Positions 3,864 through 38,145 of a DNA stretch of 64,000 nucleotides are shown here, one piece after another (the first letter of the stretch is position 1; each line of letters opens with the position of its first letter). Location: the NCBI GenBank assembly GCA_937912125.1, contig CALDOK010000192.1, forward strand, positions 15,146-79,145, in the 5' to 3' direction. The position numbers were made by a program, and so were the translations under genes. This stretch comes from an uncultured Pseudomonadota bacterium. Lineage in GTDB: Bacteria; Myxococcota_A; UBA796; JAFGLY01. The notes under the pieces are model-generated. The model saw nothing but the letters and a program-made list of their open reading frames with translations. It made no database searches and was not told the origin of the DNA.

Positions 3864-6800
3864 ATGCGATGCTCCCTCCTCGGCTTGGCGCTGCTCGTCC
3901 ATGGCTGCGATGCTCCCGTCCCGGTCGCTCCTGGCGACTCGGGCGTTGGGGACAGCCGCCCCACCGACCCCGAGACCATCCCGGGCATCGAGGACACTCA
4001 GGCCTGCCCCCGTGTGATCATCAGCGAGGTGGTCAGCTCCAACCGGGACAGCCTCGAGGACGGCGACGGTGACAGCTCCGACTGGATCGAGCTGTACAAC
4101 GCCTCGGGTGGTGCCGTGGAGCTCGAAGGGTGGGCCCTGTCGGACGAGCCTGGCCAGCCCGACACCTGGGGCTTCCCAGCGCTCACCCTGGGCCCCGGCG
4201 CGTTCCTGCTCGTCTTCGCATCGGGGCGTAGCGAGGATGCTCCCGTGGGCGAAGTCCACAGCAGCTTCCGCCTGAGCGCCGAGGGGGAGACGCTGCTGCT
4301 GAGCTGCTCGAGCGGCCTCGCGGACCGGGTCGAGATCCCCGCCCTGGGCGAGGACATCGCCTTCGGTGTGGAGCAACGGGTCAGCGAGCAGACCCTGCTC
4401 GGGGCCGGTGACGGTGCTCTGCTGCAGCTGGATCCCGCCCTGGGCTGGGAAGCCCCGGACCTGGACGACAGCAGCTGGATCCCGGTGATCCTGGGGGTGG
4501 GCTTCGACGGGCTGGCCAGCGACTCGGAGCCCGCCGATGTGGCCATGTTCGCCACCACCACGCAGTCCTCCGATGGGTACTCGCGCACGGGGGATCAGGC
4601 GGTGGACGGGGAAATGTCCACCTTCTCCCACACCGCGGACGGCGATCTCGAGCCTTGGTGGCAGGTGGACCTGGGGGGGCTGTGGTCCGTCGACTCCGTG
4701 CGCCTGCACAACCGCGGCGAGTGTTGCCCCGAGCGGCTCTACAACATCACGGTCAGCTTGCTGGACGCCGACGGCCTCGAGCTGTGGGCCAGTGATCTGC
4801 TCAACCCCACCGCCGAGGGCACGGTCCCCAGCGACCCCGGCGCGCTGCTCGAGGTGCACCCGGAGGAGCCCGTGGTGGCGGCCGCTGTGCGGGTGGCCAA
4901 GCATGCGGTCGGCGGAGCGGGCAGCAGCGAGTGGCTCAGCCTGGCGGAGGTCCAGGTGATGGCGGTCCAGGCATCGCCCTACACCGACGCCATCGCCACC
5001 GACCTGGGAGCGCTCATGCACGGGCTCACAGCCCGGGCGGGCCTGCGATCCTGGGTGACGCCGCCGGCCGAGGCTCCGGACCGCGCTCTGCTGCGGGTGG
5101 CCTACGACGACGGCTTCGGCCTGTGGCTGGATGGCGAAGTGCTGGCCGGGGCCGGCCTGGGCGAGATCCAGGCCAGCACCGAGCACGACGGCGCGCTGAT
5201 CGAGCTCCACGTCCTGGACCCCCAGGCCTTCGACGGGGCCCAGGGATTGCTCGCCATGGAGGTCCAGAACCTGAGCCCCGCGGACGACGACCTGCTCTTC
5301 ACGCCCGAGCTGGCGCTGCAGTGGATGGATCTGGGCGAGCTCCGCTACTTCTCGACGCCCACCCCGGGTGAGCCCAACGGCACCGGCTGGGAGGGGATCG
5401 TCCAGGCTCCGGAGGTCGACCATGCGCGGGGGTTCTATGACCAGCCCACCCCCGTGGACCTGTGCGGCCCCACCCCGGGGGCCTCCCTGGTCTACACCAC
5501 CGACGGCTCCGTGCCCGAGCCCGACAACGGCGTCACCGTCGCCCCCCCCAACGAGGCCGGGTTCGCCTGCGTGACCGTCCCCGTCGACACCACCACCGTG
5601 CTGCGGGCGGCGGCCTTCCGCAGCGGCTGGGGCGACAGCCCGGCCGTGGCCCACAGCTACATCTTCCTCGCGGACGTGGTCCGCCAGCCCGAGCAGCCCT
5701 CGGGCTTGCCCAGCACCTGGGACGGAATCAGCCAAGCGGCGGTCAGCGCGGACTACGCCATGGACCCCGAGGTGGTGGACGATCCGGCCTACGCCGAGGA
5801 CCTGCTCCGGGGTCTGCAGGCCATCCCCACGCTGTCCATCTCCATGCCTCCCGACGACCTGTTCGGCGAGGAAGCCGGGATCTACATCCACAGTGAGCAG
5901 CGGGGCGACGACTGGGAGCGGGCTGCCTCCATCGAGCTGCTGGAGCCCGATGGCGGGGGGTTCCATGAGCACTGCGGCCTGCGGATCCACGGGTACGGCT
6001 GGCGCTCCCACAGCAACACCAAGAAGCACTCCTTCCGCCTCGAGTTTTCGTCGGCGTACGGCGCCCGCAAGCTCGACTACCCCCTCTTCCCGGACGCGCC
6101 GGTAGACCGCTTCGACAGCATCGTGCTGCGGTCCCAGGGCAGCCGGGGCTGGCAGGACTTCCGGGACCCGGAGCAAGCCCAGTACCTGCGGGACGCCTTC
6201 GCCCGGGACACGGCTCGGGACATGGGCAAGGTGGACGGGCATGGCCGGCACGTACACCTGTACCTCAACGGTCTGTACTGGGGGCTGTACCAGCTGGTGG
6301 AGCGCCCCGACGCCGGCTTCGGCGAGGAGTACTTCGGCGGCGACGACGAAGACTACGACGCCATCAACCGTCGCACCTCCACCAACGAGGCCATCGACGG
6401 CACCCTGGAGGCCTATGACGCGCTGCTGGCCCTGGCCGACCAGGACGTCACCGACCCCGCGGTCTACGACGCCATCCTCGCCGTGCTCGATGTGGACGAT
6501 CTCATCGACTACATGCTGATCCACCAGTACACGGTCAACCGGGACGGCCCGTGCTGCTTCTACCACAACAACATGCGCGGGCTGCGGGAGCGGCGCGACG
6601 GCGCCCTGTGGCGCTTCTTCGTGTGGGACATGGAGTACAGCATCTGGGAGGCCAGCGATGACACCAACGTCGAGGTGGACATCGCCGGGGCCATCTCCCA
6701 CGTCTACGCCCGGCTGCGGCTCAACGCCGACTTCCGCGCCCGCTACGCCGAGCGCGCGGCCCAGCACCTGGGGCCCGGCGGCGCCCTCGGCGTCGAGGCC

Positions 6801-7010
6801 AGCACCGCCCGCTGGCTCGCCCGCAGCGACGAGATCGTCGATGCGGTGGTGGCCGAGTCGGCCCGCTGGGGCGACACCGACCGCGAGCCGCCCTACACCC
6901 GCGACGGGGAGTGGATGGCCGAGCACCAGCGGCTGCTCGGGGAGTTCTTCCCGTACCGCAGCGCCCAGCTCGAGCAGCAGCTCATCGACGCGGGCTTGAT
7001 GGAGCCTTGA
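3864..7010 (+). CDS. Lipoprotein with lamin-tail domain, F-type lectin domain, FN3-like domain and CotH kinase domain
   Basis: Lipobox LLVHGC; ISEVVSSN...DWIELYN (LTD); SHT...WWQVDL...NRGECCPERL (F-lectin); YTTDGSVP; KKHSFRL, LYLNGLYWGLYQLVE, HNN and WDME (CotH). Confidence 0.85.
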   Translation: MRCSLLGLALLVHGCDAPVPVAPGDSGVGDSRPTDPETIPGIEDTQACPRVIISEVVSSNRDSLEDGDGDSSDWIELYNASGGAVELEGWALSDEPGQPDTWGFPALTLGPGAFLLVFASGRSEDAPVGEVHSSFRLSAEGETLLLSCSSGLADRVEIPALGEDIAFGVEQRVSEQTLLGAGDGALLQLDPALGWEAPDLDDSSWIPVILGVGFDGLASDSEPADVAMFATTTQSSDGYSRTGDQAVDGEMSTFSHTADGDLEPWWQVDLGGLWSVDSVRLHNRGECCPERLYNITVSLLDADGLELWASDLLNPTAEGTVPSDPGALLEVHPEEPVVAAAVRVAKHAVGGAGSSEWLSLAEVQVMAVQASPYTDAIATDLGALMHGLTARAGLRSWVTPPAEAPDRALLRVAYDDGFGLWLDGEVLAGAGLGEIQASTEHDGALIELHVLDPQAFDGAQGLLAMEVQNLSPADDDLLFTPELALQWMDLGELRYFSTPTPGEPNGTGWEGIVQAPEVDHARGFYDQPTPVDLCGPTPGASLVYTTDGSVPEPDNGVTVAPPNEAGFACVTVPVDTTTVLRAAAFRSGWGDSPAVAHSYIFLADVVRQPEQPSGLPSTWDGISQAAVSADYAMDPEVVDDPAYAEDLLRGLQAIPTLSISMPPDDLFGEEAGIYIHSEQRGDDWERAASIELLEPDGGGFHEHCGLRIHGYGWRSHSNTKKHSFRLEFSSAYGARKLDYPLFPDAPVDRFDSIVLRSQGSRGWQDFRDPEQAQYLRDAFARDTARDMGKVDGHGRHVHLYLNGLYWGLYQLVERPDAGFGEEYFGGDDEDYDAINRRTSTNEAIDGTLEAYDALLALADQDVTDPAVYDAILAVLDVDDLIDYMLIHQYTVNRDGPCCFYHNNMRGLRERRDGALWRFFVWDMEYSIWEASDDTNVEVDIAGAISHVYARLRLNADFRARYAERAAQHLGPGGALGVEASTARWLARSDEIVDAVVAESARWGDTDREPPYTRDGEWMAEHQRLLGEFFPYRSAQLEQQLIDAGLMEP

Positions 7011-12351: not shown

Positions 12352-12480
12352 GGACGGGACCCGTGATCCGATGGTAGCCGAGCCGGCCGAGCCCACCCGG
12401 CCGAGACAGCGCGGCTGTGGGCACAGCTACCGAGTCGACCCGGACGGCTCCGGCGCAGCGATGGGGTGGCGAGCCTGTCG

Positions 12481-13128
12481 CTACTCGTCGTAGACGTACG
12501 CCTCGAGCATCGACTGGTACCAGGCGGTGTCGATCTCGGCGACGAGGGCGCCGCGGTCGATGATCGTGGAGTTCGGCACGGTGATGCTGGGATCCCAGCG
12601 CGCGAAGACCTCTCGGTTGGGGTCCGAGAGGATGGGGAAGCTGAGGTTCTTCTCGGCGGCGTAGGCGGCGGCCTCGGCCGAGGTGGTGTCGTACATCACC
12701 ATCAGGGGGATGAAGCCGTCGGGGCCGTATTCCTGGAAAGTCCACTCCAGACCTGGAGCGTTGCCTGCGCAGCCGCTTCAACTGAATCCAGCGAACTCGA
12801 TCAGCACCACCCGGCCGCAGAAGTCATGCAGCGACACCGTGTCGCCGTACTGATCTTCGAGGGCGAAGTCGAAGGCCACCTGGCCCTCGCCGTTGCCGGT
12901 GGCCTCGATGGTGTCGTTGCACTCGCTGTCCTTGCGCCAGCCACCTGCGTAGGGCTGGTCCTGGGCGTCCAGCGGGTCGCTGCCGGCGTCCTGCTCGGCG
13001 CCGTTGGTGAAGCCGTCGCCGTCTTCGTCACCCGACGGGTCCAGGCCCTGGCCACCCCCGGTGTCGTCCTTGTCAGGATCTCCGCAGGCCACGAGGCCGA
13101 GCAGGCTGAGGAAGGCGAGCCAGCGCAT
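12481..13128 (-). CDS. Selenocysteine-containing thioredoxin-fold (TlpA/AhpC-TSA redoxin) lipoprotein, 215 aa, UxxC motif
   Basis: ATG 13128 with GGAGG RBS; lipobox LGLVAC; DFALEDQYGDTVSLHDFCGRVVLIEFAGFS-TGA(12780-12778)-SGCAGNAPGLEWTFQEYGPDGF...NLSFPILSD. The two ORF-track fragments are in one frame, separated only by this TGA. Confidence 0.88.
12744..12759 (-). promoter_or_regulatory. Bacterial SECIS-like hairpin
   Basis: GCTCCA-GGTC-TGGAGT begins 19 nt after the UGA; its core CAGGTCTG matches the apical part of the E. coli fdhF SECIS as I recall it. Confidence 0.8.
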
Positions 13129-13218
13129 GGAACCTCCTGCGTGGTGGGTGCTCGTTGGGCTCAGCATAGGGCCCACGCTTCCGGGACACAAGGGCGCCGC
13201 GAGGGGCTGACGGATCCC

Positions 13219-15732
13219 TCACTCGTCGATGTAGCCCAGGGCCTCGAGGTGTTCGTTCATGCCACCGTCGTTGGCCTCGAGCTCGCCCTCATGGGGGTAG
13301 GGCAGGGGGCTTTGGTGGAGGGTGAGGGTGAAGCGGTGGTCGCCCCTGCCTGCGGTCACCAGGGTCTGACGCCGGGCTAATACCAGGCTTGGATCCCGCG
13401 CACGGGGCGAGCGCTGGCCGGTCCAGCTGTCCTCGCCGCACTCCACCACAAGCTGCAGATCAGCGACGTCCAGGGGGTCGCCCACGGGCTGGACGAAGAT
13501 CTCCCGCGGCAGGTACAGGCCGTCGCCCTGGGCGACACTCAGCTCGCTGCCCGCCAGCACTGGGTTGGCCATGTCGCCGGTGAGGGACAGGGGGTGCCAG
13601 GCCTGCTCGAAGCCCGCCCCGTGGTGCAGCGTGACCCGCCCCTCGAAGTCCTGGACGATGCGGCCGTCCCCCGGGCCGTACAGGCGCCAGACCGGGCGGA
13701 CTTCGCGCTCCAGGGCCTGGGCCAGCAGGGGAGGAAAGCGCTGCAGGTCGGCTTCGGGTGTCCCGGCGAGATCCTGCAGCTCGTCCGGGTCGGTCCGCAG
13801 ATCGTACAGCTGCTGGGTTCCGCCCCTGGCGACCCACTTGAGGCCCTCGGGCGCCAGCACGCCCCAGGCCTCGTCGTCGTAGAGCAGGCCCCCGAAGAAG
13901 TGCGCGCGCGCGGCCAGCTCCTGCATCGCCTGGGTGTCGCCCTTTGCCGCGGGCAGCAGGGAACGCCCAAGCAGATCCTGGTGACCTTCAGCGCCCAGTT
14001 GATCCAACAGGGTGGGGGTCAGATCCAGCAGGGAGACGGGGACCTCCACCCGCCCAGGCGGCAAGCCGGGAGCCCGGATGGCCAGGGGGACGCGCAGCAG
14101 CTCGTCGTACAGGGTGTGGCCGTGCTCCACGCTGCCGTGCTCGAAGAACTCCTCCCCGTGGTCTGAGAACACCACCACCACGGCGTCTTCCCGCAGTGAG
14201 CCCAGCAGGCGCTCAAGCTCGTGATCCATGAAGAGGATGTTCTGGTCGTAGCGGCCAACCAGGTAGTCGCGCACCAGGTCCTGCCGCTCGCCGCGGAGAT
14301 TCAGCCCCCGCAGCCCGCGCCGGTTGATCTTGCCCGCCAGCCCCTCGGGTTCCTCGCCTGCCCAGCGTCCCTGGTAGGCCTCGGGCTCGTTGTAGGGCAT
14401 GTGGGGGTCCATCAGCTGGACCATCACCATGGCGTCGCGGTCCTTGTGGCGATCCAGGAAGGCGATGGCGCGGTCCACCTGCTCGTCCGCCGGCGCCAGC
14501 AAGTGGTAGCCATACCAGCCCCAGCCGTGGCCCATGTCGAAGGCGGAGGTGAGGAAGGCGTTGGCGACGAAGGCGCCGGTGACGAAGCCCAGCTCGGCCA
14601 GTCGCTCTTGCAGGGTGACGGCCTGGCCCCAGGCACCCTGGGGCATGCCCGTGAGCAACGCGCGCGCGGAGGGGAGAGTCCACGAAGAGGTGGCGCGGGC
14701 GTCGTCGAAGACCGCGGCTCCCGACATCCAGGCGTCCAGGGCCGGAGTGGTGGGGCGCTCGTAGCCGTAGGCGCCCACGTGGTCCCGGCGCAGGGTGTCC
14801 ACGAAGACCAGCACCACCTGCCGCGGGCGCTGGCTGGGCGAGTAGACCACCGGGTTGGCCAGGAAGACGTAGTCCAGCAGCGGGCTGTCCCCCGGCTCGC
14901 TGATCAGCTCGAGCTCCACCTGCTGGCCGGCCCAGGCCTCGAGATCCGCCCGGATGGGATTCCAGCCGTCACATGCCAGGCGGTGGACCTTCAGCTCGGT
15001 CACCACGCCGTCGGCGTGGACCCGCAGCCGCAGCAGCGCGCCATCGGAGGCCAGGCCCTGGTCCACCGCGGGCTCCAGCAGGCGCGCCTCCAGATCCAAC
15101 ACGGCCCCCGGGGGCACCGTGACCCGCCACCGCGCCAGCCCCGGGGCGGGGAGCAGCACGCCGCGGCGGAGCTCGTCGTCCACACTCAGCTCCCGCAGGG
15201 CAAAGGCGGCCCCTTCCAGCGTCGAGCTGGCCGGGTCCAGGGCGTTCTCCCAGGCTGCAGCGGGTGGGTAGCGGACGCGGAGCGAGCCTGCGCGGGGGGG
15301 CTCCGAGCCCAGCGCGGGCCGGATCTGAAGCTCGCCGGCCCTGGCCCGCCAGGTGGTGAGCTCGGGCTGTGCGCTGCGATCCCAGTTGTAGACCAGCTCT
15401 TCGTCGTCGGGGCCCAGCAGCGCCATGCCATCGGGCGGCGTGCGCGTGGTGTGGCCGTAGAAGACCTGGCCTACGGGCAGGGCGACGCAGTACGCTTCGA
15501 GCCCTTCGTCCCGCCAGCAGCGCTCCGGTTCCTGGCGCAGGGTGGCGATGGAGGGCGTGGGCAGCCCGTGGGGGTGGTTGGTGGAGGGGAGCTCGAGGGC
15601 CACCAGGGCCTGGGGCTGGTGCGCGAGCAGCAGGGGCGCGGCCGGTGCAAACTCCGGCAGCGCCGCCGGGCATCCGAGCAGCTGCGTCGAGAGCAGCGCG
15701 AGCGCCGCGGGGAACCCCGGCCGCCCCCTCAT
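13219..15732 (-). CDS. Exported sulfatase-like (alkaline phosphatase superfamily) hydrolase/transferase, 837 aa
   Basis: Signal or lipobox ending LLGC; VDTLRRDH, SWTLPS, DPHMPY, FSDHGEEF, EHGHTLY and C-terminal LEALGY; ATGA overlap with the ABC-F stop. Confidence 0.85.
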   Translation of the reverse strand: MRGRPGFPAALALLSTQLLGCPAALPEFAPAAPLLLAHQPQALVALELPSTNHPHGLPTPSIATLRQEPERCWRDEGLEAYCVALPVGQVFYGHTTRTPPDGMALLGPDDEELVYNWDRSAQPELTTWRARAGELQIRPALGSEPPRAGSLRVRYPPAAAWENALDPASSTLEGAAFALRELSVDDELRRGVLLPAPGLARWRVTVPPGAVLDLEARLLEPAVDQGLASDGALLRLRVHADGVVTELKVHRLACDGWNPIRADLEAWAGQQVELELISEPGDSPLLDYVFLANPVVYSPSQRPRQVVLVFVDTLRRDHVGAYGYERPTTPALDAWMSGAAVFDDARATSSWTLPSARALLTGMPQGAWGQAVTLQERLAELGFVTGAFVANAFLTSAFDMGHGWGWYGYHLLAPADEQVDRAIAFLDRHKDRDAMVMVQLMDPHMPYNEPEAYQGRWAGEEPEGLAGKINRRGLRGLNLRGERQDLVRDYLVGRYDQNILFMDHELERLLGSLREDAVVVVFSDHGEEFFEHGSVEHGHTLYDELLRVPLAIRAPGLPPGRVEVPVSLLDLTPTLLDQLGAEGHQDLLGRSLLPAAKGDTQAMQELAARAHFFGGLLYDDEAWGVLAPEGLKWVARGGTQQLYDLRTDPDELQDLAGTPEADLQRFPPLLAQALEREVRPVWRLYGPGDGRIVQDFEGRVTLHHGAGFEQAWHPLSLTGDMANPVLAGSELSVAQGDGLYLPREIFVQPVGDPLDVADLQLVVECGEDSWTGQRSPRARDPSLVLARRQTLVTAGRGDHRFTLTLHQSPLPYPHEGELEANDGGMNEHLEALGYIDE

Positions 15733-17618
15733 GCGGGAGCCCCCGCGCTCAGCTGCGCGTCGAGATCTTCCCACTCCAGAAACAGCTCGGCGCTCCGCGC
15801 TTCTGCGGCCTGTCGCTCCTCGCTCAGGCCGCGCAGGGCAGAGAAGTCGGTGGCCGCCTGGACCATGGCTTGGTCCAGATCCTCGATGCGGGCGTCCAGG
15901 CGTTCGATCTCCACCTGGATGGCGGTGACCCGGCGCTCCATGCGGTCGCGGTCCCGGGACTGCCGCTTGCGCACGGCGTGGGCGGCGGCGCCCTCCGCGG
16001 CGCTGTCGCGCTCGGACTCCTCGCTGCGCAGCTTGGAGGCCTCGAAGAAGGCTGCGCGGGCGCCCTCGAACAGCTCGAGCCCTCCGCCCGAGACCATCGC
16101 GACGTGAGTGGCCACATGCTCCACCAGGTAGCGGTCGTGGGTGGCCACCACCACGGTGCCCTGGAACGCGGCCAGGGCCTCGGCCAGCACGCCCACGGTC
16201 ACCGCGTCGAGGTGGTTGGTGGGTTCGTCCAGCAGGAGCAGATCGTGCCGTCGCAGTGCGAAGCCCGCCAGCACCACCCGCGCCTTCTCGCCGCCCGAGA
16301 GGGAACCCACCGGGCGCAGGGCCGCGTCGCCGGACAAGCCCAGGGCGCCCAGCACGCTGCGGACCTGCTCGGGGCTGGCCGTGGGGGCGCGGGCCAGCAC
16401 CTGATCCAGGGCGCTGAGCTCCGTGTTGAGCTCCCGCGCGGCCTCCTGGGTGAAGACCCCCAGGCGGACCCCCTCTGCGACGCGTCGGCGTCCGCCCGAG
16501 AGGGCCAGGTGGCCGGCCAGGGCCCGCAGCAGCGTGGACTTGCCGCAGCCGTTGGGGCCCAGCAGGGCCAGGCGCGAGCCGGGCTCCAGGGCCAGATCCA
16601 GGCCCAGGAAGATGGGAGGACCCCCGGGCCAGCCGATGGTGGCGTCGGACAGCTCGACAGGCGCGGAGGCCACGGGCTCTGCAGGGGGGAGCCGGAAGCG
16701 CGGCGTCTGGCGCTCGCGGCTGGGAGCTTCCACCCGCTCCATGCGGTCCAGGGTCTTCTGGCGCGCGCGGGCCTGGGAGGCCCGATCCGCCTTGGCGCGG
16801 TTGCGGTCGATGTAGTCCTGCAGGCGGGCGATCTCTTTCTGTTGCGCGTCCCAGCTCGAGCGCTCCCGCGCCAGCTGCAGGCTGCGCTCCTTCATCCAGC
16901 CGTCCAGCTTGCCCCGGAAGGTCAGCAGGCGTCCGCTGTGGACCTCGGCGATGCGGTTGCAGACCTTGTCGAGAAGATGACGGTCGTGGGACACCACCAC
17001 CAGGGCGTGGGCGTAGCGCTCGAGGAAGCCCGCGAGCCAGCTGCGGGCGGCCATGTCCAGGTGGTTGGTGGGCTCGTCCAGCAGCAGGAGTTCGGGCTCC
17101 GACAGCAGCAGGCAGGCCAGCTCGATGCGCACCTGCCAGCCCCCCGAGAAGGCGTCGCAGGGGCGCCTCCAGTCCTCCTTGCGGAAGCCCAGGCCGTGCA
17201 GCACCTCGCCCACGCGCTCCTCGGCGGCGTACCCCCCGGCCAGCCTGAAGCGCTCGGTGGCCTCTCCCAGGGCGGCCGCGGCGCTGGTGTCGCCGTCCAG
17301 CACCGCCCGCTCGGCCCGGTCGAGCTCCTGCCGCAGGCGTCCCAGGCGGGTCATGGACGCGCGAGCTTCGTCCCACAAGGGCCGCTCGCCCCGGCTGGGG
17401 GGCTGCTGCCGCAGGTAGCCGAGGGCCAGCCCTGGGCGCAGCCGCACCGTGCCCCGCTCGAGGTCCAGCTCGCCTGTGATCACGCGGATCAGCGAGGTCT
17501 TCCCGCAGCCGTTGGGGCCCATCAGGCCCACCCGGTCACCCTGATGCACACCCCAGGAGGCGTCGACCAGCAGGTCGCGCCCTCCGAGGCTCAGGGTGGC
17601 TCGCTCGAACCGTAGCAT
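15729..17618 (-). CDS. ABC-F family ATPase (YheS/Uup-like)
   Basis: Two cassettes (GPNGCGKTS/FSGGWQ/LDEPTNHLD and GPNGCGKST/LSGGEK/LDEPTNHLD), no TM segments, C-terminal coiled coil. Confidence 0.93.
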   Translation of the reverse strand: MLRFERATLSLGGRDLLVDASWGVHQGDRVGLMGPNGCGKTSLIRVITGELDLERGTVRLRPGLALGYLRQQPPSRGERPLWDEARASMTRLGRLRQELDRAERAVLDGDTSAAAALGEATERFRLAGGYAAEERVGEVLHGLGFRKEDWRRPCDAFSGGWQVRIELACLLLSEPELLLLDEPTNHLDMAARSWLAGFLERYAHALVVVSHDRHLLDKVCNRIAEVHSGRLLTFRGKLDGWMKERSLQLARERSSWDAQQKEIARLQDYIDRNRAKADRASQARARQKTLDRMERVEAPSRERQTPRFRLPPAEPVASAPVELSDATIGWPGGPPIFLGLDLALEPGSRLALLGPNGCGKSTLLRALAGHLALSGGRRRVAEGVRLGVFTQEAARELNTELSALDQVLARAPTASPEQVRSVLGALGLSGDAALRPVGSLSGGEKARVVLAGFALRRHDLLLLDEPTNHLDAVTVGVLAEALAAFQGTVVVATHDRYLVEHVATHVAMVSGGGLELFEGARAAFFEASKLRSEESERDSAAEGAAAHAVRKRQSRDRDRMERRVTAIQVEIERLDARIEDLDQAMVQAATDFSALRGLSEERQAAEARSAELFLEWEDLDAQLSAGAPA

Positions 17619-19223: not shown

Positions 19224-20311
19224 TCGGCGGTGTCCCCTCCCATGCTGCCCAGGGGGTCGTAGATGAAGTAGCCGACGCCCGACTCGCCGCCCCAGGTGTC
19301 GGTGACCCACAGGTGGATGCGGTCGCCTACGCGGTTGGCCGCCACGGCACCGACCTCGCCTTGCGGGGTCTGGTTGATGGGGATGCGCTCTTGCTGGACC
19401 TCCCAGGTGTCGCCGTCGCTCGAGGTGGCCCAGCCCAGGAACATCTGGCTGGAGGTCTGGTACCCGACGTTGACCTCCCAGTCACCGAAGCCCACGAAGA
19501 ACATGTACCAGGAGCCCGCCAGCTCCACGACTGCGGTGCTGATGAAGCCCTCGTCGTACCAGGAGTTCGGGGGGCCCGCGGGGATCATCTGGCGTTCCCC
19601 CATGGTCCAGGAGAGGCCATCGGCGGACGACATGGCATACATCGAGCACGCGGTCTCGCCCATGTTGTAGCCGGCGACGTAGCCCTTGTAGCCGCCCACG
19701 GTGCCCAGGCTCAGCCCCAGGGGCCAGCAGCCGTTCACCATGCCGCCCGAAGAGGGATTGACCAGGTCGAAGACCGGGTCGGAGAGCTCCCAGTCGAGGC
19801 CGTCCACGGACGACGCGGTGCCGAGCTTCCACTCGCTGCCCACCACGTTGTACCCACCGTAGAGGATCAGGTACTGCATGGCGGTGGGGTCCCAGACCAC
19901 CTGCATGCCCTGCATCCCGTCGTGGTTCCAGGCCCGGAAGTCCTCGGGTTCCTCCAGCAGCGGGTTCGAGGGGTAGGGTGTCCAGGTGGTGCCGTCGTCG
20001 CTGATGGCGTAGCCCAGGCCGTAGTCGCCGTACTCGCTGCCTACGGGCGCCCCGATGTACCACATCTGGTAGAAGGGGTGCCCCACGACCTCGGTGACGT
20101 TGAAGGTGGTGTTGCCGATGGCCCCTGCCCAGGTCTCGCCCGAGGTGGTGAAGACCGGGTTGCAGTCGTACGAGTAGAAGTCCGAGTCCAGGACGCGGGT
20201 GAAGTCGCACTCGGTGACGTCGCCGGGGTCGATGTCAGGTGGCGCTGGGATCACCTCGTAGTCGGACGGACAACCGGTCAAGACGAGCGCGAGAACCAGG
20301 GTTGGGCGCAT
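19220..20311 (-). CDS. Lipoprotein with a five-bladed beta-propeller glycosidase-like fold (GH32/43/130-like)
   Basis: Lipobox VLTGC; repeated Asp-box-like motifs AISDDGTTW, ASSVDGLDW, MSSADGLSW, ATSSDGDTW; GGAGG RBS. Confidence 0.75.
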   Translation of the reverse strand: MRPTLVLALVLTGCPSDYEVIPAPPDIDPGDVTECDFTRVLDSDFYSYDCNPVFTTSGETWAGAIGNTTFNVTEVVGHPFYQMWYIGAPVGSEYGDYGLGYAISDDGTTWTPYPSNPLLEEPEDFRAWNHDGMQGMQVVWDPTAMQYLILYGGYNVVGSEWKLGTASSVDGLDWELSDPVFDLVNPSSGGMVNGCWPLGLSLGTVGGYKGYVAGYNMGETACSMYAMSSADGLSWTMGERQMIPAGPPNSWYDEGFISTAVVELAGSWYMFFVGFGDWEVNVGYQTSSQMFLGWATSSDGDTWEVQQERIPINQTPQGEVGAVAANRVGDRIHLWVTDTWGGESGVGYFIYDPLGSMGGDTAE

Positions 20312-20455
20312 GGGGCCTCCAGGTCGGCATCTCCATTGAGGATAGCGGCTCCCATGGCCGCTGGCCACGGCCTGGGACGCCGTGGTGCACGCTGGCAGGC
20401 GCGCTGCGGCTGCAATACTGCTTCGGAGAGCTGCGCGCGCTGCGCTGGAGGCACG

Positions 20456-22480
20456 GTGATCGGAAGTCGATTCGGGCGGTACCGCGTAGAGCAAGAGCTC
20501 GGCAGAGGCGACTTCGGGGTCACCTGCCGGGCGGTGGATGTGGAGGGCTCGGGTCGCGAGCTGGCCTTCAAGGTCGCCCACGCCCACCTGTGCCAGGACG
20601 ATCTCTTCCAGGCCCTGCTGGAGCGCGAGTGCGCGCCCCTGCGGGGCCTGCGGCATCCGGGCATCGCCGCCTTCCAGGGCCTGACGGCCGAGGGCGGGCA
20701 GCTGGTGGCCGCCCGCGAGCTGGTGGCGGGCGAGGATCTGCGACGCGTGATCGCGCGGGGGCGCGTACCTGTGGAGCACGTGCCCGGCCTGCTCGAGCTG
20801 GCCCTGCGCGCCCTGGCCCATGCCCACCAGCAGCGGGTGATCCACGGCGACATCAGCCCCACCAACATCTTCTGGTGCTACGACGGCAGCCTGCGGCTGA
20901 CCGACTTCGGCCTGGCCAGGGCCGTCCATGTGGCCGAGGCCACCCGCACCGGCGCACCCTCGGGCCACGCCGACTACATGGCGCCCGAGCTGGCTGAGGG
21001 CGTGCAGAGCGCGCGCTCGGACCTCTACTCCATCGGCCTGATCGCCTACGAGTGTCTGGTCGGGCACCCCGCCTGCGAGCCTGGCGACGCCGCGAGCAAG
21101 GCCGCGTGGCATCGCAACAAGGGCCTGCCCGACCCTCGCGTCGAGCAGCCCGACTGCCCTGACTGGCTCGCTCGAGTCCTGATGCAGCTGGCGGCCATCG
21201 AGCCCTCCACCCGGCCCAAGGACGCCGATGCGGCGCTGATGCTGCTGCGGCCGGTGCGGGCGCCCACCGTCGGCGACTCCAACCTGGAGCCGTCCACCCA
21301 GATCGGCTCGTCGTCTTCGGGCTTGGTGCCTCCGCCTCCCCCGGAGCGCACGCCTCCCGCCCCGCCGACCATCGAGCGCCCCGTGCTGGAAGACACCGTG
21401 GCCACCACGGCCCCCGAGGGCTTCGGCGGCGGCGGATTCAGCGCCAGCGCCGGCTTCGGAACCGGCGGCGGCTTCGGTCGCACCGTCACCGAGGCTCCCC
21501 CGGCCAGCGCTCCCTCGGCCCCGCTATCGTCCAGCCCCGGCCTGCCTTCGCCTCCTCTCGCAACTGGGGCCCCGGTCTCGGCCACCGCCGCTGCCGGGGT
21601 GGCCGCGCCCCGCGTGCCGGCCTCCGCCAGCGCCCGCGGCGTGGATCGTCGGCTCGACCCTCCCACCGCCCAGGAGCGGGCGCTCGCGGCCAAGCGGGAG
21701 CGAATCCGGGTCGCCGTGTTCTGGTCCGTGGCTGTAGGGGTCCTGCTGGTCAGCGTCGTGGCCTTCGTGGGCTACCGGGCCATCGAGGCCCGGCGCTTGG
21801 CTGCGGCGAGGGCCACAGGTCCCGACTTCGATCCCGAGCTGCTGCTGGGTGGGGGCTACGACCGCTACGGCGAGCCGCCGGAGGTCGAGAAGCCCGGTGG
21901 TGGTGGCCGGTCCAGCGCGGGGAACGACGATGACGTGGCTGCCACCGATCCCAACGCCAAGGCTGCGGTCCAGCAGCGTCCGGCCGCTGGCGCCAACGAC
22001 GAGCGCTACCTCTTGGGAGGAGGGGCCGAGGCCACGGGTGAGTATGGTCACCTCAGCCTGTCCTCCAACCCCATCGGCGCACGCATCTGGGTCGACAACC
22101 AGGAGCTGGGCTACACGCCCCTCGAGGCCCACAGCCTGCGCGAAGGGCGCCATGTGGTGCGCCTCGAGCTCGAGGGCTTCGCCTGGTCCAGCCAGGCGGT
22201 CGAGGTGCGCCGCGGCGAGCTTGTGGATCTGGGCAACGTCACCCTCGAGCGCGAGGTGGTCGCGGCTGGGCCGGTGCTGCTGTGGAGCGTCGAGCTCGAG
22301 GGCTCCAGCGTCTTCGTAGACGGCACCCACGCCGGCAGGATGCCTGTGGTGGTCGAGATGACCCCTGGGCCCCACACCTTCTTCGTGCAGCCCAGTCAGG
22401 GAGAGCCGATCGAGCTCGAGCTCATCGCCTACCCCGGCACGGACGACGACCCAGGCCGTCTCCAGTTGGAACCGCGCTGA
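20456..22480 (+). CDS. Membrane Ser/Thr protein kinase with C-terminal PEGA domains
   Basis: GTG after GGAGG; GRGDFG, AFK, HGDISPTN, DFG, YMAPE; Pro/Ala linker, one TM, then SNPIGARIWVDNQELGYTP (PEGA). Confidence 0.9.
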   Translation: MIGSRFGRYRVEQELGRGDFGVTCRAVDVEGSGRELAFKVAHAHLCQDDLFQALLERECAPLRGLRHPGIAAFQGLTAEGGQLVAARELVAGEDLRRVIARGRVPVEHVPGLLELALRALAHAHQQRVIHGDISPTNIFWCYDGSLRLTDFGLARAVHVAEATRTGAPSGHADYMAPELAEGVQSARSDLYSIGLIAYECLVGHPACEPGDAASKAAWHRNKGLPDPRVEQPDCPDWLARVLMQLAAIEPSTRPKDADAALMLLRPVRAPTVGDSNLEPSTQIGSSSSGLVPPPPPERTPPAPPTIERPVLEDTVATTAPEGFGGGGFSASAGFGTGGGFGRTVTEAPPASAPSAPLSSSPGLPSPPLATGAPVSATAAAGVAAPRVPASASARGVDRRLDPPTAQERALAAKRERIRVAVFWSVAVGVLLVSVVAFVGYRAIEARRLAAARATGPDFDPELLLGGGYDRYGEPPEVEKPGGGGRSSAGNDDDVAATDPNAKAAVQQRPAAGANDERYLLGGGAEATGEYGHLSLSSNPIGARIWVDNQELGYTPLEAHSLREGRHVVRLELEGFAWSSQAVEVRRGELVDLGNVTLEREVVAAGPVLLWSVELEGSSVFVDGTHAGRMPVVVEMTPGPHTFFVQPSQGEPIELELIAYPGTDDDPGRLQLEPR

Positions 22481-22689
22481 CGCCCGACGCGCGCCCTGGC
22501 GACCCCCGCTGAGCGGCCCAGCGCGTGCCCGCGAGATGTGTCCGAAGTGACAAGTTGCACCATCGATATGGTCGATGTCGCAGATTGTCTGAGATCCAGG
22601 TGGATCACGGGATTCCACTGCTGTATAGTAGCGATGACCGCAGTGGCGCGCTGCGCGAAGCGTACGTACACCTCCAGGGAGGCACCCAG

Positions 22690-24588
22690 ATGTCCACCAA
22701 GACCCTCACCATCCTCGCTTCTGTCGCCCTCATCGGCTGTCAGGGCGCAGGCTCCACCCTCGATCAAGAGATCGGCCGCATCGGTGGCTTCGTCTACGAT
22801 CTCGATGGCAACCCGGTCGCCGACGTCACCGTCGAAGTCCAGGGCCTCGAGGCCACGACGAACGCCAGCGGCTACTACCAGCTGGGCGACATCCTGCCTG
22901 CCTCGGCGATCCCGGTGACCTTCCACAAGGACGGCTACGCCACGGGCTATTCCCGCGCCGAGCTGATCTCTTGGGAGTTCGTGTCGGTCAATGGCACCAT
23001 CATGCCCATCGACGGCACCGCCACCTTCGACGCCTCCGTCGGCGGCACGGTGGAGATCGAAGGCGTGAGCATCACCTTCGCCTCCGACAACATCCTCACC
23101 ACCAGCGGCGAACTCTACACGGGCGAAGTGGTCGTCTCCTCCACCCACGTCAACCCGCACACCTCCGAGATCCTCGGCGCCCCCGGCGACCTCACCGCTT
23201 GGCGCAAGGTCACCGACGCGGGCAAGGACGACAGCTACACCCTCAACCAGCTGGTCTCCTACGGCATGATCAACGTCACCCTCGAGACCCCCGAGGGCGA
23301 AGAGGTCGAGGTCGATCCCACCCAGCCGGTCGATGTGTCCATGCCCATCGACAACGGCGAGTACCCCGACGTGTACCGCCTCGATGTCGGCGACACCAAC
23401 GACGTGTGGTCCTTCGACCCTGAGCTGTCCCGCTGGGTGGACGACGGCGTGGGCACCATCGCCGAGACCGATGATGGCCTGGCCTTCGAGTTCCAGGCGT
23501 CCCACTTCTCCTGGTGGAACTGCGACCAGGGCTACGTGCCCACCTGCGCCACCGGCTACGTCTACGACGTGCTGGACTTCCCGGTCCGCTCCGCCGAGGT
23601 CACCTGCACGGGCTCTCAGACCAACTCCACGGTCTACACCGACGAGAACGGTCTGTACGTCTGCACCGTCATGGTGGGCGACACCATCAACGTCACCGCC
23701 ACCACCACCGTGGGTGGCCGCAACTGGTCCGAGACCGAGGGCGGCGTCTACCTCTACGGCTACGGCTCCTCCGCTGCCGATTGCCAGCCCATCGACGATC
23801 TGGACATCCAGGTCTGCCGTGAGACCGGCGTCATCACCGGTGGCAACTTCACCGCCTCCTCCGGAAAGGGCGGCGAAGAGTACCAGGTCGACCTCATCGA
23901 GGCCGCCTTCTGGGAGCCTCAGGGCGACCCCATCCTCTGCGAGGATCCCTGGAACTCGCTGGACGACAACGAGTGCACCATGGCCCACCCCGACGAGGTC
24001 GAGAAGTGGGTCGACAATGGCGACACCATGGTCGAGGCCTACGAAGATGGCCGCTCGGTCGGTGACCACCTGACCATCAGCACCTCTCGCGAGAACTTCG
24101 AGATGGACCGCGACTACCTCGACGGCAAGCCCTGGTACCGCTGGGACGAGTACGAAGAGGAAGGCATCTTCGAGGACAACGACGACATCGACATCCAGGC
24201 CCCGGGCGATCGCGGCGACTACATGGGCAGCTTCTCCAAGGAGAACTTCACCCGTATGCCTCCCGCCACCCACGTGGCCCCTGGTGAGTACGAGGGCACC
24301 TACGACGGCGGCAGCCTGGACGTCGAGTACGATGGCGCCAACAACGACGCCAATGGTGTCGTGGTCTTCGTAGCCTCTGAGAACGCCTACGAGGACGAGA
24401 CCTGCATGTGTCGGTTCAATGATGACGGCAAGATCTCGGTGCCCTCGAACTACATGAACCAGCTCGACAGGGGCATGGGTGCCATCACGATCGCCCACCT
24501 CGAGAACCACTGGACGGAAGGCCCCGATGGCCTGCCCATCCGCGTGCAGCTGTTCTCCGGCACCATGATGTCGGTAGACTTCGAGTAG
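22690..24588 (+). CDS. Acidic lipoprotein with carboxypeptidase-regulatory-like beta-sandwich domains
   Basis: GGGAGG RBS; lipobox ALIGC; GFVYDLDGNPVADVTV...TTNASGYY; HFSWWNCD motif; strongly biased codon usage. Confidence 0.82.
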   Translation: MSTKTLTILASVALIGCQGAGSTLDQEIGRIGGFVYDLDGNPVADVTVEVQGLEATTNASGYYQLGDILPASAIPVTFHKDGYATGYSRAELISWEFVSVNGTIMPIDGTATFDASVGGTVEIEGVSITFASDNILTTSGELYTGEVVVSSTHVNPHTSEILGAPGDLTAWRKVTDAGKDDSYTLNQLVSYGMINVTLETPEGEEVEVDPTQPVDVSMPIDNGEYPDVYRLDVGDTNDVWSFDPELSRWVDDGVGTIAETDDGLAFEFQASHFSWWNCDQGYVPTCATGYVYDVLDFPVRSAEVTCTGSQTNSTVYTDENGLYVCTVMVGDTINVTATTTVGGRNWSETEGGVYLYGYGSSAADCQPIDDLDIQVCRETGVITGGNFTASSGKGGEEYQVDLIEAAFWEPQGDPILCEDPWNSLDDNECTMAHPDEVEKWVDNGDTMVEAYEDGRSVGDHLTISTSRENFEMDRDYLDGKPWYRWDEYEEEGIFEDNDDIDIQAPGDRGDYMGSFSKENFTRMPPATHVAPGEYEGTYDGGSLDVEYDGANNDANGVVVFVASENAYEDETCMCRFNDDGKISVPSNYMNQLDRGMGAITIAHLENHWTEGPDGLPIRVQLFSGTMMSVDFE

Positions 24589-35986: not shown

Positions 35987-37162
35987 CTAACCCTCCAGGA
36001 AGTGCTCCAGATCTGAGCGCGTGGGCTGGTAGTCCGGGCGCGGCCTGCCGATCCAGGTGCAGAGGTAGCCGTCATGGACGCGCTGCCCGGCGGTCTGGGC
36101 GATGGAGAGTGGGGTCGGAAGGGCGGGCGGGCGGCCGTGGTCCCGCTGGTAGTCCAGTGGGCAGTAGGGGTCTTTGGTCTCCAGGCTGCCGTGGACCAAC
36201 CACGCTCGGGATGCGCAGCCTCCGCGGCAGGCCTCGAGCCAGGGGCAGTCGGCCTCCTGGCAGGCTCTGGGAACCCGCCGTCTGCGGGCCCCGAACCGGG
36301 TGAAGGGCTCGCTCTGGACGATGGCCTGGGCGGGGTCCTCGAGCAGGTCGCCAGTGCGGAAGTCATGGCTGTAGACGCAGGGACTGAGGGGCACGCAGCC
36401 GTCGGCGCTCCGGCCCTGCACGCGGAACGAGCTGTGGCCGCATGGGCAGCCCGTGGCCGGCAGATCCACCACGGCGGCCAGGCAGGCATCCCCCAGTGAG
36501 ATGCAGTCGCTGTGGCGCATCAGTCGCGCGAAGCCCTCGAAGAAGGCGTCGCGGCTGGGCATGTTGGCCAGCAGTGCCGGCTGCACCGGCTGGAGCGTGT
36601 TGACCCGCAGCTCACACCCCAGCAGCCAGGCCAGGTCCATGAAGCCGTCGATGGTCTCGGCGGTGAAGCTCTCGCGGGTGGCGCAGGTGACGATGGCGCA
36701 GGGGATCCCGAGCTCGCGGCAGCGCTGCAGTGCGCGGATGACCGAGCTGAACAGCGCCGCGCCGCGGTGCTGGTCGTGCCGTCGCTGGGTTGGGAAGTCC
36801 AGGGAGAAGTCGATGTCGTTGAGGGTGGAGAGGGCGCCCGGGTGGTGGTCGTGCAGGGCGTGGAAGCTGGCGCCGTTGGTGGTGAGCCCCACCGCCAGGC
36901 CGGCCCGGTGCAGGCGCTGCAGCAGCCAGGGCAGCCGGCTGTCCTGGAGCTGCGGGCCGTGGGTGAAGATGGGCTCGTTGCCCCCCAGGTTCACCGAGCA
37001 CACCCCCAGCGCCACCAGCTGCGCGATGACCCGCTCCAGCTCCTGCTCATGCAGCCCGCGAGGCTGGTGCTTTCGCTGCTCGCGGCTGTAGCAGTGGGCG
37101 CAGTGGGCGTTGCAGTGGCTGCCGATGGTCCAGCCGACGTTCCGAAAGAGGGTGTTGCTCAT
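35987..37162 (-). CDS. Radical SAM enzyme with SPASM domain (391 aa)
   Basis: CNAHCAHC, GGNEP and TTNG; C-terminal CPCG...SPC...CQEADCPWLEACRGGCASRA...DPYCP. Confidence 0.9.
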   Translation of the reverse strand: MSNTLFRNVGWTIGSHCNAHCAHCYSREQRKHQPRGLHEQELERVIAQLVALGVCSVNLGGNEPIFTHGPQLQDSRLPWLLQRLHRAGLAVGLTTNGASFHALHDHHPGALSTLNDIDFSLDFPTQRRHDQHRGAALFSSVIRALQRCRELGIPCAIVTCATRESFTAETIDGFMDLAWLLGCELRVNTLQPVQPALLANMPSRDAFFEGFARLMRHSDCISLGDACLAAVVDLPATGCPCGHSSFRVQGRSADGCVPLSPCVYSHDFRTGDLLEDPAQAIVQSEPFTRFGARRRRVPRACQEADCPWLEACRGGCASRAWLVHGSLETKDPYCPLDYQRDHGRPPALPTPLSIAQTAGQRVHDGYLCTWIGRPRPDYQPTRSDLEHFLEG

Positions 37163-37274
37163 GCTCTGCTGCTGTGTGGTTCGGCTGAGCCTACCAGCCC
37201 TGACGCCACCGCGGGACGGTGAATCCAGCACCGGGCTGTTGGCGCGTGCGGGCCCCTCATCGAGACTGCGGGTA

Positions 37275-37296
37275 ATCGTATAGAGTATTATACAAT
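37275..37296. promoter_or_regulatory. AT-rich inverted repeat, candidate operator or promoter
   Basis: ATcGTATA-GAGTAT-TATACaAT in a conspicuous AT island, about 110 nt upstream of the radical SAM gene. Confidence 0.55.
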
Positions 37297-37335
37297 AAAT
37301 ACCTACAGCCGACCTGTGTCGCCCTGGAGGACACC

Positions 37336-37521
37336 GTGAGTGTGGAACCGCTCGGATCGCAGGACAACAACCGGCGGACATTGCTGCTGGTGGTCTTGGC
37401 CGCCGTGTTGATGCTGGCCTGGGTGCTGGACGCCCAGCGGCGCATCGAGGCGCGGCATGCCATGGGGCCCGCGCCGAGGCGCGCGAGCCAACCCGCTAGA
37501 AGCTCGGTCTACGATCTGTGA
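37336..37521 (+). CDS. Small single-TM protein (61 aa)
   Basis: GGAGGA RBS before GTG; RRTLLLVVLAAVLMLAWVL hydrophobic helix. Confidence 0.55.
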   Translation: MSVEPLGSQDNNRRTLLLVVLAAVLMLAWVLDAQRRIEARHAMGPAPRRASQPARSSVYDL

Positions 37522-37527
37522 GCCGAG

Positions 37528-38091
37528 CTATGGCGCCACGCCGCCGCCGCTGATGGCGATCTCGAGGGTGGGGTGGTCGGGGTCGTCGCTGACCAGGGTC
37601 AGGGTGGCGGTGTAGCTGTCCGGGGCCACGGGAGAGAAGACGACCTCGATGGACAGCTGCTCGTAGGTGGCCAGCTCAACGGGGGCCGTGGCGGTGATGG
37701 TGAACACGCCGGCGTCATCGCTGAGGGTGATGCTGGAGAGGGTGAGGGGGACGGGGCCGTTGTTGCTCACCAGCAGGGTCTGGGTGGCGGCCGTGCCCAC
37801 CGCGACGGCGCCAAAGGCGAGCTCTGTGCTGTCGACCTCGATGTCGGGCTGTGCGTAGCTGTCGCTGTCCCAGCCGGCGTCGTAGCACATGACCATGGCG
37901 GAGTCGTGTTTGTCGAAGCAGCCCGCGGCGACGGCGCCCAGGCCCAGCAGCAGCCCGCCAAGGCGCAGCTTGGCCTTGAGCAGGCCGTAGCTGCGGCCCC
38001 CACTGGCCCACAGCAGGGCAGACACCAAGGCGAAGGCCAAGCCGATGCCAAGCACTGCGGCTCCAGTCCACCAAGCGCGCTCTTCCATCAC
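37528..38091 (-). CDS. Putative lipoprotein with extended leader, MVMCY motif and ASH/choice-of-anchor-D Ig-like domain
   Basis: GGAGGAG RBS; TM1, SGGRS..LLKAKLRLGGLLLGL, VAAGC; LAFGAVAVG...VSNNG...VVFSP...SDDPD. Confidence 0.8.
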   Translation of the reverse strand: MMEERAWWTGAAVLGIGLAFALVSALLWASGGRSYGLLKAKLRLGGLLLGLGAVAAGCFDKHDSAMVMCYDAGWDSDSYAQPDIEVDSTELAFGAVAVGTAATQTLLVSNNGPVPLTLSSITLSDDAGVFTITATAPVELATYEQLSIEVVFSPVAPDSYTATLTLVSDDPDHPTLEIAISGGGVAP

Positions 38092-38145
38092 TCCTCCAGG
38101 GGTTGCATGCTGCCCATCATAGCAGGCTTCGGGTAGGATGACGCC

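Follow-up and report, generated by a model that had tools for sequence, protein, structure and literature searches.

An in-frame TGA at the active site of a predicted thioredoxin-fold lipoprotein is probably read as selenocysteine and points to a possible multigene family of selenolipoproteins

Does the TGA codon that interrupts an open frame on contig CALDOK010000192.1 end translation, or does it place selenocysteine (U) in the active site of an exported redox protein? The contig belongs to assembly GCA_937912125.1 of an uncultured bacterium (GTDB lineage Myxococcota_A), and the window analyzed here is a 64,000-nucleotide (nt) stretch of it (positions 15,146 to 79,145), to which all coordinates for this locus refer. 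The gene in question occupies 12481..13128 on the minus strand, as do the features described within it. An earlier annotation made from the letters alone (the sequence-only reading) had proposed a hidden selenoprotein in which two open reading frame fragments lie in frame across a single TGA at the first Cys of a CxxC motif (FAGFS-U-SGC), with a downstream hairpin for selenocysteine insertion. Our follow-up supports this interpretation, nearly all of which holds. We estimate at roughly 90%, on sequence-based evidence, the probability that the gene encodes an exported lipoprotein with a thioredoxin fold that carries selenocysteine, directed by a selenocysteine insertion sequence (SECIS), at the nucleophilic position of a UxxC motif.

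The coding sequence begins with an ATG at 13128..13126, preceded at a distance of 4 nt by a Shine-Dalgarno-like GGAGG (13133..13137), and closes with a TAG at 12483..12481, so that its 216 codons, counting the stop, specify 215 residues with selenocysteine at residue 117. Twenty orthologs align with it end to end. The sole in-frame TGA is codon 117 (12780..12778), in the context F-A-G-F-S-U-S-G-C, where it takes the nucleophilic position of U-S-G-C (12778..12780). Translation under genetic code table 11 splits the frame here into 137- and 73-amino-acid open reading frames. Contigs from three sequencing runs in two studies (X1 record 2; X2 records 5 and 6; X3 record 8) span 12778-12780 with zero differing letters, although one of these three runs may be the source sample itself. 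The TGA is therefore not an assembly slip, and the assembled contigs give TGA rather than TGC or TGG. Public databases have inherited the split that the sequence-only reading foresaw: 11 of 12 database relatives are fragments of 118-166 amino acids, all three fragments that we fetched end one residue before the TGA (for example, ...E-F-A-G-F-S), and the ortholog group is represented in public protein collections by N-terminal fragments only.

The codon is strongly conserved. Our ortholog set comprises 16 best matches from outside the taxonomic family, which were fetched, and four family-level matches, spanning 45-100% identity. TGA is retained at the same codon in 20/20 of these sequences, within the context E-[FY]-[ASG]-G-[FY]-[STG]-U-x-x-C, and TGA-free relatives carry Cys in its place. 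Among 40 rows of the wider protein family taken from genomic loci, 29 contain the TGA (28 distinct genes) and all 29 read U-x-x-C at the active site; within these TGA-bearing rows, in-frame TGAs occur at the CxxC position only. Of the 11 TGA-free rows, 10 read C-x-x-C, mostly W-C-x-x-C, and the database Cys form P0005 likewise has Cys at the TGA column. Homologs carry Cys or TGA at the codon, as the sequence-only reading required. The eleventh TGA-free row, L043 (G007 contig C43, 4397-4945), is a close paralog with 40% identity that has neither TGA nor CxxC and reads S-G-S-Y-Q-H-E-G-T at the site; judging by its sequence, it is apparently a redox-dead member of the family.

Coding constraint continues beyond the TGA. 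Uncorrected ratios of nonsynonymous to synonymous differences (pN/pS) against five orthologs are 0.30-0.78 downstream of the codon and 0.34-0.61 upstream, and conserved residues on its 3′ side vary synonymously in the ortholog alignment. By these sequence comparisons, translation clearly runs on past the TGA, with purifying selection as strong downstream as upstream. The table-11 split and the stump-only database entries are also what a plain stop would leave behind, whether the locus is a pseudogene, contains a sequencing error or consists of two genes. Such a stop is scarcely credible, however, given its retention in all 20 orthologs and in 123 of the 150 order-level matches listed, the identical letters in contigs of two studies, the lack of any start codon or ribosome-binding site at the point where a second gene would have to begin, and downstream conservation that equals upstream conservation.

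Reading UGA as selenocysteine requires dedicated machinery, which the sequence-only reading had predicted to lie elsewhere in the genome. The full set is present in the host genome (9.27 Mb in 527 contigs, 69.5% G+C, 98.9% completeness). A genome search recovered selA (488 bits), selB (264 bits, with an additional match to the C-terminal part of the selB model) and two copies of selD (361 and 336 bits), all above their cut-offs, and a tRNA-Sec scoring 60.6 bits against a gathering score of 47, which ARAGORN also calls as tRNA-SeC with anticodon tca. One selD copy (L010) has no internal stop, and the other (L011; G000 contig C97, ~21992-22924, minus strand) has its own in-frame TGA at ...A-D-C-A-G-U-A-A-K..., which makes the second selD itself a selenoprotein gene of the classical kind. 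TGA nevertheless retains its ordinary meaning: 11/20 orthologs terminate at a TGA at the conserved C-terminus, so the codon has not been reassigned. A genome-wide reassignment to a standard amino acid, as in codes 4 or 25, would explain the open frame and nothing beyond it. It has next to no probability in view of these terminal TGAs, the lack of internal TGAs in the selA, selB, COX1 and DsbD matches, the confinement of TGAs in the family to the CxxC position, and the presence of a dedicated tRNA-Sec.

The remaining requirement is a signal in the message itself. The sequence GCTCCA-GGTC-TGGAGT begins at the 19th base past the TGA, as the sequence-only reading had noted together with its G-led loop, and an extra C-G pair extends the stem to 7 base pairs (bp). 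The resulting putative SECIS core hairpin (12743..12760) has the stem CGCUCCA/UGGAGUG and the loop GGUC (12753..12750), lies 24 nt from UGA to loop, and folds locally with -10.3 kcal/mol. A bacterial SECIS model printed in a 2026 review (PMC13188914) asks for 3-9 nt in the apical loop, with a G among the first two of them, for 4-16 bp in the upper stem, for a UGA-to-loop distance of 16-37 nt and for a free energy of at most -7.5 kcal/mol; the 4-nt GGUC loop, the 7-bp stem, the 24-nt distance and the -10.3 kcal/mol of this hairpin fall within all of these published constraints. The hairpin codes for N-A-P-G-L-E with codons that are rare in this gene: GCT in 16/17, CCA in 12/19 and GGT in 13/19 orthologs, whereas Ala, Pro and Gly elsewhere in the gene are nearly always encoded by GCC/GCG, CCC/CCG and GGC. 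The retention of rare codons in the hairpin points to selection on the RNA.

Comparative analysis agrees with this placement. In the alignment of 20 orthologs, 89% of cells pair, a value that drops to 28-58% when the partners are slid by 1-3 columns. Double-sided changes occur in three of the seven stem pairs (three from CG to UA, one from GC to AU and one from UA to CG); of 500 shuffles, 7 reached the observed covariation score and 0 the observed number of doubly changed cells, although the orthologs are related and these counts are not independent. Paralogs preserve the position of the hairpin but not the sequence of its stem, and their loops are rich in G (GGA, GGC, GGU, GUC, GUG or GGG). 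When we asked for a hairpin of 5 bp or more, centered at +24 to +35 and with a G in its loop, 41 of 44 distinct TGA forms had one, whereas 300 shuffling trials averaged 9.0 of 44 and never exceeded 16; because the sequences are related, none of the hairpin or covariation counts is to be read as a probability. We dropped an alternative metric based on the best hairpin (22/44), which is confounded by competing hairpins, and used the test for existence instead.

The protein that results from read-through has the predicted architecture of a tethered extracytoplasmic enzyme. Its N-terminus, M-R-W-L-A-F-L-S-L-L-G-L-V-A-C, was read by eye as a basic R2, a hydrophobic run and a lipobox, and the predicted signal peptide (13084..13128) ends in L-V-A-C at residues 12-15, with Cys15 predicted, by pattern, to be lipidated. 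The pattern [LVI][ASTVI][GAS]C ends lipoprotein signal peptides, and every ortholog row that reaches the N-terminus shows [GAST][LT][VAC]AC, with the lipobox Cys conserved. Residues 34-55 (12964..13029) contain a bacterial TSP3 repeat (D-E-D-G-D-G...), presumed to bind calcium; the Pfam match to TSP3_bac (PF18884) is marginal at 27 bits against a cut-off of 25, and the Asp and Gly columns are kept in 19-20 of 20 orthologs. The lipobox and the TSP3-like segment had both been picked out in the sequence-only reading. Further on, Cys70 (12919..12921; column -47) and Cys104 of an L-H-D-F-C motif (12817..12819; column -13) are conserved in TSP3-type members, each being Cys in 20/20 orthologs, and we suspect from this conservation that they form a structural disulfide. 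The TSP3-type members share the lipobox, one to three TSP3 repeats, a D-P-x-D-x-x-D-x-P-Y-x-G-G-W linker, and the Cys70 and Cys104 pair.

These N-terminal features raise the question of whether the stump could be the real product. To our knowledge, bacterial selenocysteine insertion is never fully efficient, and the part before the UGA has conserved features of its own in the TSP3 repeat and Cys70; a 116-residue TSP3 lipoprotein ending at the UGA could then carry the main function, with read-through being minor or conditional on selenium. We consider this very unlikely. A protein ending at the UGA would contain no more of the thioredoxin fold than its first core strand, purifying selection is as strong downstream of the codon as upstream, and the downstream half completes what AlphaFold2 confidently predicts to be a single domain.

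That domain (12541..12885) is assigned to the thioredoxin fold by Pfam, by profile comparison with the PDB, and by AlphaFold2 with Foldseek. Pfam AhpC-TSA matches residues 82-196 (2.5e-15; 57 bits against a cut-off of 26), and Redoxin scores 41 bits against 26.6. An AlphaFold2 model built on a 45-sequence alignment has a predicted local distance difference test score (pLDDT) of 90.2 and a predicted template modeling score (pTM) of 0.82, with low confidence only in residues 1-30, which comprise the signal peptide and tether. The top solved structure in Foldseek is Bacillus ResA, with template modeling (TM) scores of 0.78-0.83 per target (0.83 for 4nmu), followed by DsbE, TlpA-like proteins of Bacteroides and Geobacter, SdbA, and the pneumococcal surface lipoprotein Etrx2. 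The family profile matches ResA in the PDB at 1e-23 and aligns U117 and Cys120 with C-E-P-C of ResA; this alignment and the Cys of TGA-free relatives place the TGA at the nucleophilic Cys of a ResA/TlpA-type CxxC, as proposed. The resolving Cys120 (12769..12771) and Pro185 (12574..12576) each reach 90% conservation or more across the 45-sequence alignment, and Pro185 aligns with the proline of L-P-T-T in ResA, which we take to be the cis-proline position of the thioredoxin fold. The protein thereby shows the layout of the TlpA/ResA/CcmG type, in which the active site opens helix 1 and faces a conserved proline. The protein is probably ResA/TlpA-like in both fold and chemistry.

A mechanism can be proposed on this basis. 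SelB and tRNA-Sec would read UGA codon 117 as selenocysteine by way of the hairpin 24 nt downstream within the coding sequence, producing one 215-residue protein with a ResA/TlpA-type thioredoxin fold and the site U-S-G-C. As its sequence patterns suggest, this protein would be exported through the Sec translocon and then lipidated on Cys15, and a short acidic tether with one TSP3 calcium-binding repeat would hold it at the membrane surface. There, the U117 selenolate would attack a disulfide or other oxidized sulfur of an extracytoplasmic client, Cys120 would resolve the mixed selenenyl-sulfide, and a DsbD/CcdA-type membrane electron carrier would re-reduce the Se-S bond. Two DsbD_TM proteins are encoded elsewhere in the genome. 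By analogy with its structural relatives, we give even odds to the protein being an extracytoplasmic reductase of disulfides or oxidized sulfur, with Cys120 as the resolving residue and DsbD/CcdA-type recharging.

A genuine selenoprotein at this locus could also have a different chemistry. It might act as a peroxidase similar to glutathione peroxidase or peroxiredoxin, with U117 reacting with hydroperoxides or with substrates of the sulfenic acid or methionine sulfoxide type, and Cys120 resolving the selenenic acid. The best Pfam match is indeed AhpC-TSA, weak NCBIfam matches to thiol peroxidase and glutathione peroxidase occur in 25 and 6 of the 45 family members, P0005 has a precomputed match to PF00255, and the organism faces oxygen, as its three genes for haem-copper oxidase subunit I imply. 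The peroxiredoxin signature PxxxTxxC/U, however, is absent: the site reads A-G-F-S-U-S-G-C, with selenocysteine at the Thr position and no Pro. Peroxiredoxin selenoproteins have TxxU (PMC13188914 and PMC1088965), whereas in the UxxC found here the Thr position is taken by selenocysteine and the reactive position by Cys120. The closest solved proteins, by both profile and fold, are the reductases ResA, TlpA, DsbE and Etrx rather than peroxiredoxins, and we regard the peroxidase role as unlikely.

Slightly less likely still is that the selenoprotein oxidizes or isomerizes disulfides, or that it binds or chaperones soft metals or metalloids, instead of working as a reductase. Variation of the dipeptide between the two active-site residues tunes redox potential in thioredoxin-fold proteins, and in the paralogs this dipeptide is variously SG, PG, PS, GG, GA, NG, GL, PT, SS, TS or RS. 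DsbA-like and DsbG-like UxxC selenoproteins also appear in a table of the review cited above (PMC13188914). The predicted structure, in contrast, has no helical insertion or dimerization domain of the DsbA/DsbC type, the solved structures that it resembles most are TlpA/ResA-class reductases, and no metal-handling genes adjoin the gene. A ResA/TlpA-like reductase remains the function that we favor.

Several observations weigh against the selenolipoprotein assignment or parts of it. At 70% GC the test for a hairpin is lenient, since 4 of 10 Cys forms pass it, and 3 of the 44 TGA forms fail. The 69 nt that follow the TGA fold no better than shuffled sequence (z = +1.04; 173 of 200 shuffles equal or better), and the minimum-energy fold of this region omits the hairpin. 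In 39-nt windows, TGA forms fold modestly better than Cys forms (p ~0.02, among related sequences). Since the single-sequence fold does not surpass shuffles, we relied on the position-specific and comparative tests, in which the published SECIS constraints, the 89% pairing and the 41/44 TGA forms uphold the SECIS-type hairpin proposed in the sequence-only reading. An Rfam scan of 12400-13200 gave chance-level matches only (best E = 2). No RNA run that contains this stretch is listed, and the sole run labeled metatranscriptomic gave no match. No NCBIfam model reaches its cut-off (ResA, 48.1 against 170 bits; TlpA, 19.9 against 230 bits), so that the protein is not an equivalog of any characterized enzyme. 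Export, lipidation, calcium binding, and the link to DsbD are elements that we infer from sequence. Finally, the gene neighborhood yields no functional clue and suggests no client.

The read-through protein belongs to a large family. A six-frame search of its own genome returned 16 matches at E ≤ 1e-3, nine of them with exactly one TGA. Matches occur in all 10 genomes of the taxonomic family and, at E ≤ 1e-15, in 116 of 151 sampled genomes of the order; among the 150 order matches listed, 123 have one TGA and 27 have none, with 85 further matches beyond these. A family profile run against the six-frame translation of the host genome gave 33 domain rows, 22 with a thioredoxin domain and 11 with TSP3 only. 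The 22 thioredoxin-domain rows divide into 11 UxxC, 10 CxxC, and one with neither. A lipobox is found in 7 of the 11 UxxC paralogs (five by regular expression and two by eye); of the remaining four, three are truncated where their contigs end, and the fourth begins with a long N-terminal region of another kind. With 11 UxxC genes from one family and the selenocysteine-containing selD, the genome has at least 12 selenoprotein genes.

One UxxC member on another contig of the host genome (G000 contig C481; V-Y-F-A-T-W-U-P-Q-C; segment start 10380, U at segment residue 1310) has several hundred residues ahead of its thioredoxin domain and neither TSP3 nor a lipobox nearby.

TGA-bearing members also lie in tandem. 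Three stand in a row at 36308-38482 of G076 contig C15, and pairs occur at G082:C98, G015:C16, G107:C149, G099:C104, G036:C207, G133:C88, G032:C35, G081:C95 and G041:C10. These arrays suggest that selenoprotein genes were duplicated locally and recently, SECIS elements included. The natural Cys homolog P0005 falls in ESM-Atlas clusters named AhpC/TSA-Redoxin-TSP3, for which the commonest recorded phylum is Myxococcota, and NCBIfam side-hits to CglD and MtsD agree with relatives centered on Myxococcota; the large-genome bacteria of this order are probably Myxococcota. The genome studied here abounds in TSP3 repeats and serine/threonine kinases. We propose, with a confidence just short of an even chance, that the order harbors an undescribed multigene family of surface-tethered, TSP3-bearing UxxC selenolipoproteins that would form a selenol-based extracytoplasmic redox network.

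The immediate neighbors of the gene vary among related loci. The minus strand directly upstream (13219-15900) encodes a sulfatase-family protein (Pfam Sulfatase, 2.9e-35) that has a lipobox-like N-terminus of its own, ...L-L-S-T-Q-L-L-G-C; an ABC-F ATPase is also found upstream, and downstream there is a DnaJ-domain protein. A search of the genome contigs for related loci found two same-genus loci and one fragment only, and the adjacent sulfatase in the same orientation (64-65% identical) is kept in just these two same-genus loci. At L069 and L071, from another family, a weaker sulfatase-like match (30-33%) lies on the opposite strand within ~3 kb. No cytochrome-maturation, methionine sulfoxide reductase (Msr) or metal-handling genes stand next to the selenoprotein gene among the neighbors at this locus. 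Elsewhere in the window, on the plus strand, 3864-7010 encodes a large CotH-kinase protein that also contains Lamin-tail, F5/8 type C and chitobiase C-terminal domains, and 19313-22480 encodes a Ser/Thr protein kinase that carries a PEGA domain at its C-terminus.

If this reading is correct, its consequences lie mainly at the level of the family. Gene callers truncate the gene and its paralogs and no curated NCBIfam model covers them, so that the proteomes of this order lack a whole group of exported redox proteins. Judged by their sequence patterns, these proteins would display selenocysteine on lipid anchors beyond the cytoplasm, and they belong to bacteria equipped with haem-copper oxidases. 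Peng et al. 2016 (PMC5029168) define selenoprotein-rich organisms by six or more selenoprotein genes and describe most of them as anaerobes; the present genome exceeds that threshold through one expanded family, and the order, should the order-wide reading be true, would be selenoprotein-rich while carrying genes for oxygen respiration, contrary to the published trend. Natural pairs of selenocysteine and Cys paralogs in single genomes could reveal what selenium contributes to a thioredoxin fold in an oxidizing compartment. The single gene will not surprise a specialist, but an order-wide, multicopy selenolipoprotein family that is lost from annotation is worth recording.

The class of predicted selenoproteins to which the protein belongs, peroxiredoxin-like thiol:disulfide oxidoreductases with PF00578 and UxxC, has been in print since 2004-2005, which agrees with the statement in the sequence-only reading that UxxC redoxins are known. 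They are listed in the review PMC13188914 and described in PMC1088965. A table in the former gives a peroxiredoxin-like thiol:disulfide oxidoreductase (PF00578, UxxC/UxxU), a Redoxin family protein (PF08534, UxxC) and a UGC-containing TlpA family protein, and the same review mentions thiol-disulfide isomerase-like (cd02966, UxxC) and Redoxin selenoproteins from marine metagenomes. In the Sargasso Sea study of Zhang et al. 2005 (PMC1088965), 22 sequences that resemble peroxiredoxins distantly have a thioredoxin-like UXXC instead of TXXU. Peng et al. count 32 genes of the peroxiredoxin-like family in 28 organisms, or approximately one per genome (PMC5029168).

Like the peroxiredoxin-like UxxC family, our protein scores above the gathering threshold for PF00578, has selenocysteine as the first residue of U117-S-G-C120, and was predicted by the same logic of a UGA aligned with Cys and followed by a SECIS. 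It differs from that family, as judged from published descriptions, in its lipoprotein signal, TSP3 repeat and extra conserved Cys pair ahead of the domain, and in the presence of 11 UxxC copies in one genome. With the cd02966 and PF08534 groups, also compared by description, it shares the TlpA-like thioredoxin fold, UxxC and a Redoxin match, and to these it again adds the lipobox, TSP3 and the Cys pair. Two curated models describe ResA-like selenoproteins of a related fold: NF041054 (ResA-like WAxxUGC motif-containing protein; WAxxUGC_long), matched weakly by our protein (21.4 against 300 bits) and by 11 of the 45 family members, and NF040769 (SelL-related redox protein), matched weakly by our protein (19.9 against 120 bits) and by 9 of 45. 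We rejected membership in either, given scores far under the cut-offs and a motif that is UxxC rather than UGC.

The reductases ResA, TlpA, CcmG/DsbE, StoA and Etrx1/2 provide the closest functional comparison, through their fold, aligned active site and conserved proline. Etrx2 is itself a lipoprotein, and anchorage to membrane or lipid outside the cytoplasm is a further likeness, predicted in the present case. Here, in contrast to the ResA/TlpA class, selenocysteine replaces the nucleophilic Cys, and the Trp that precedes the motif becomes Ser or Thr in the ortholog group. Our literature search found neither the combination of lipobox, TSP3 and Cys pair, nor the family expansion, nor a link between selenoproteins and Myxococcota, although supplementary tables of selenoproteome papers might list such genes. 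Set beside these known systems, what is new here is the expansion of the family, which has 11 UxxC copies in this genome alone and is matched in 116 of the 151 order genomes sampled, together with its distinctive architecture.

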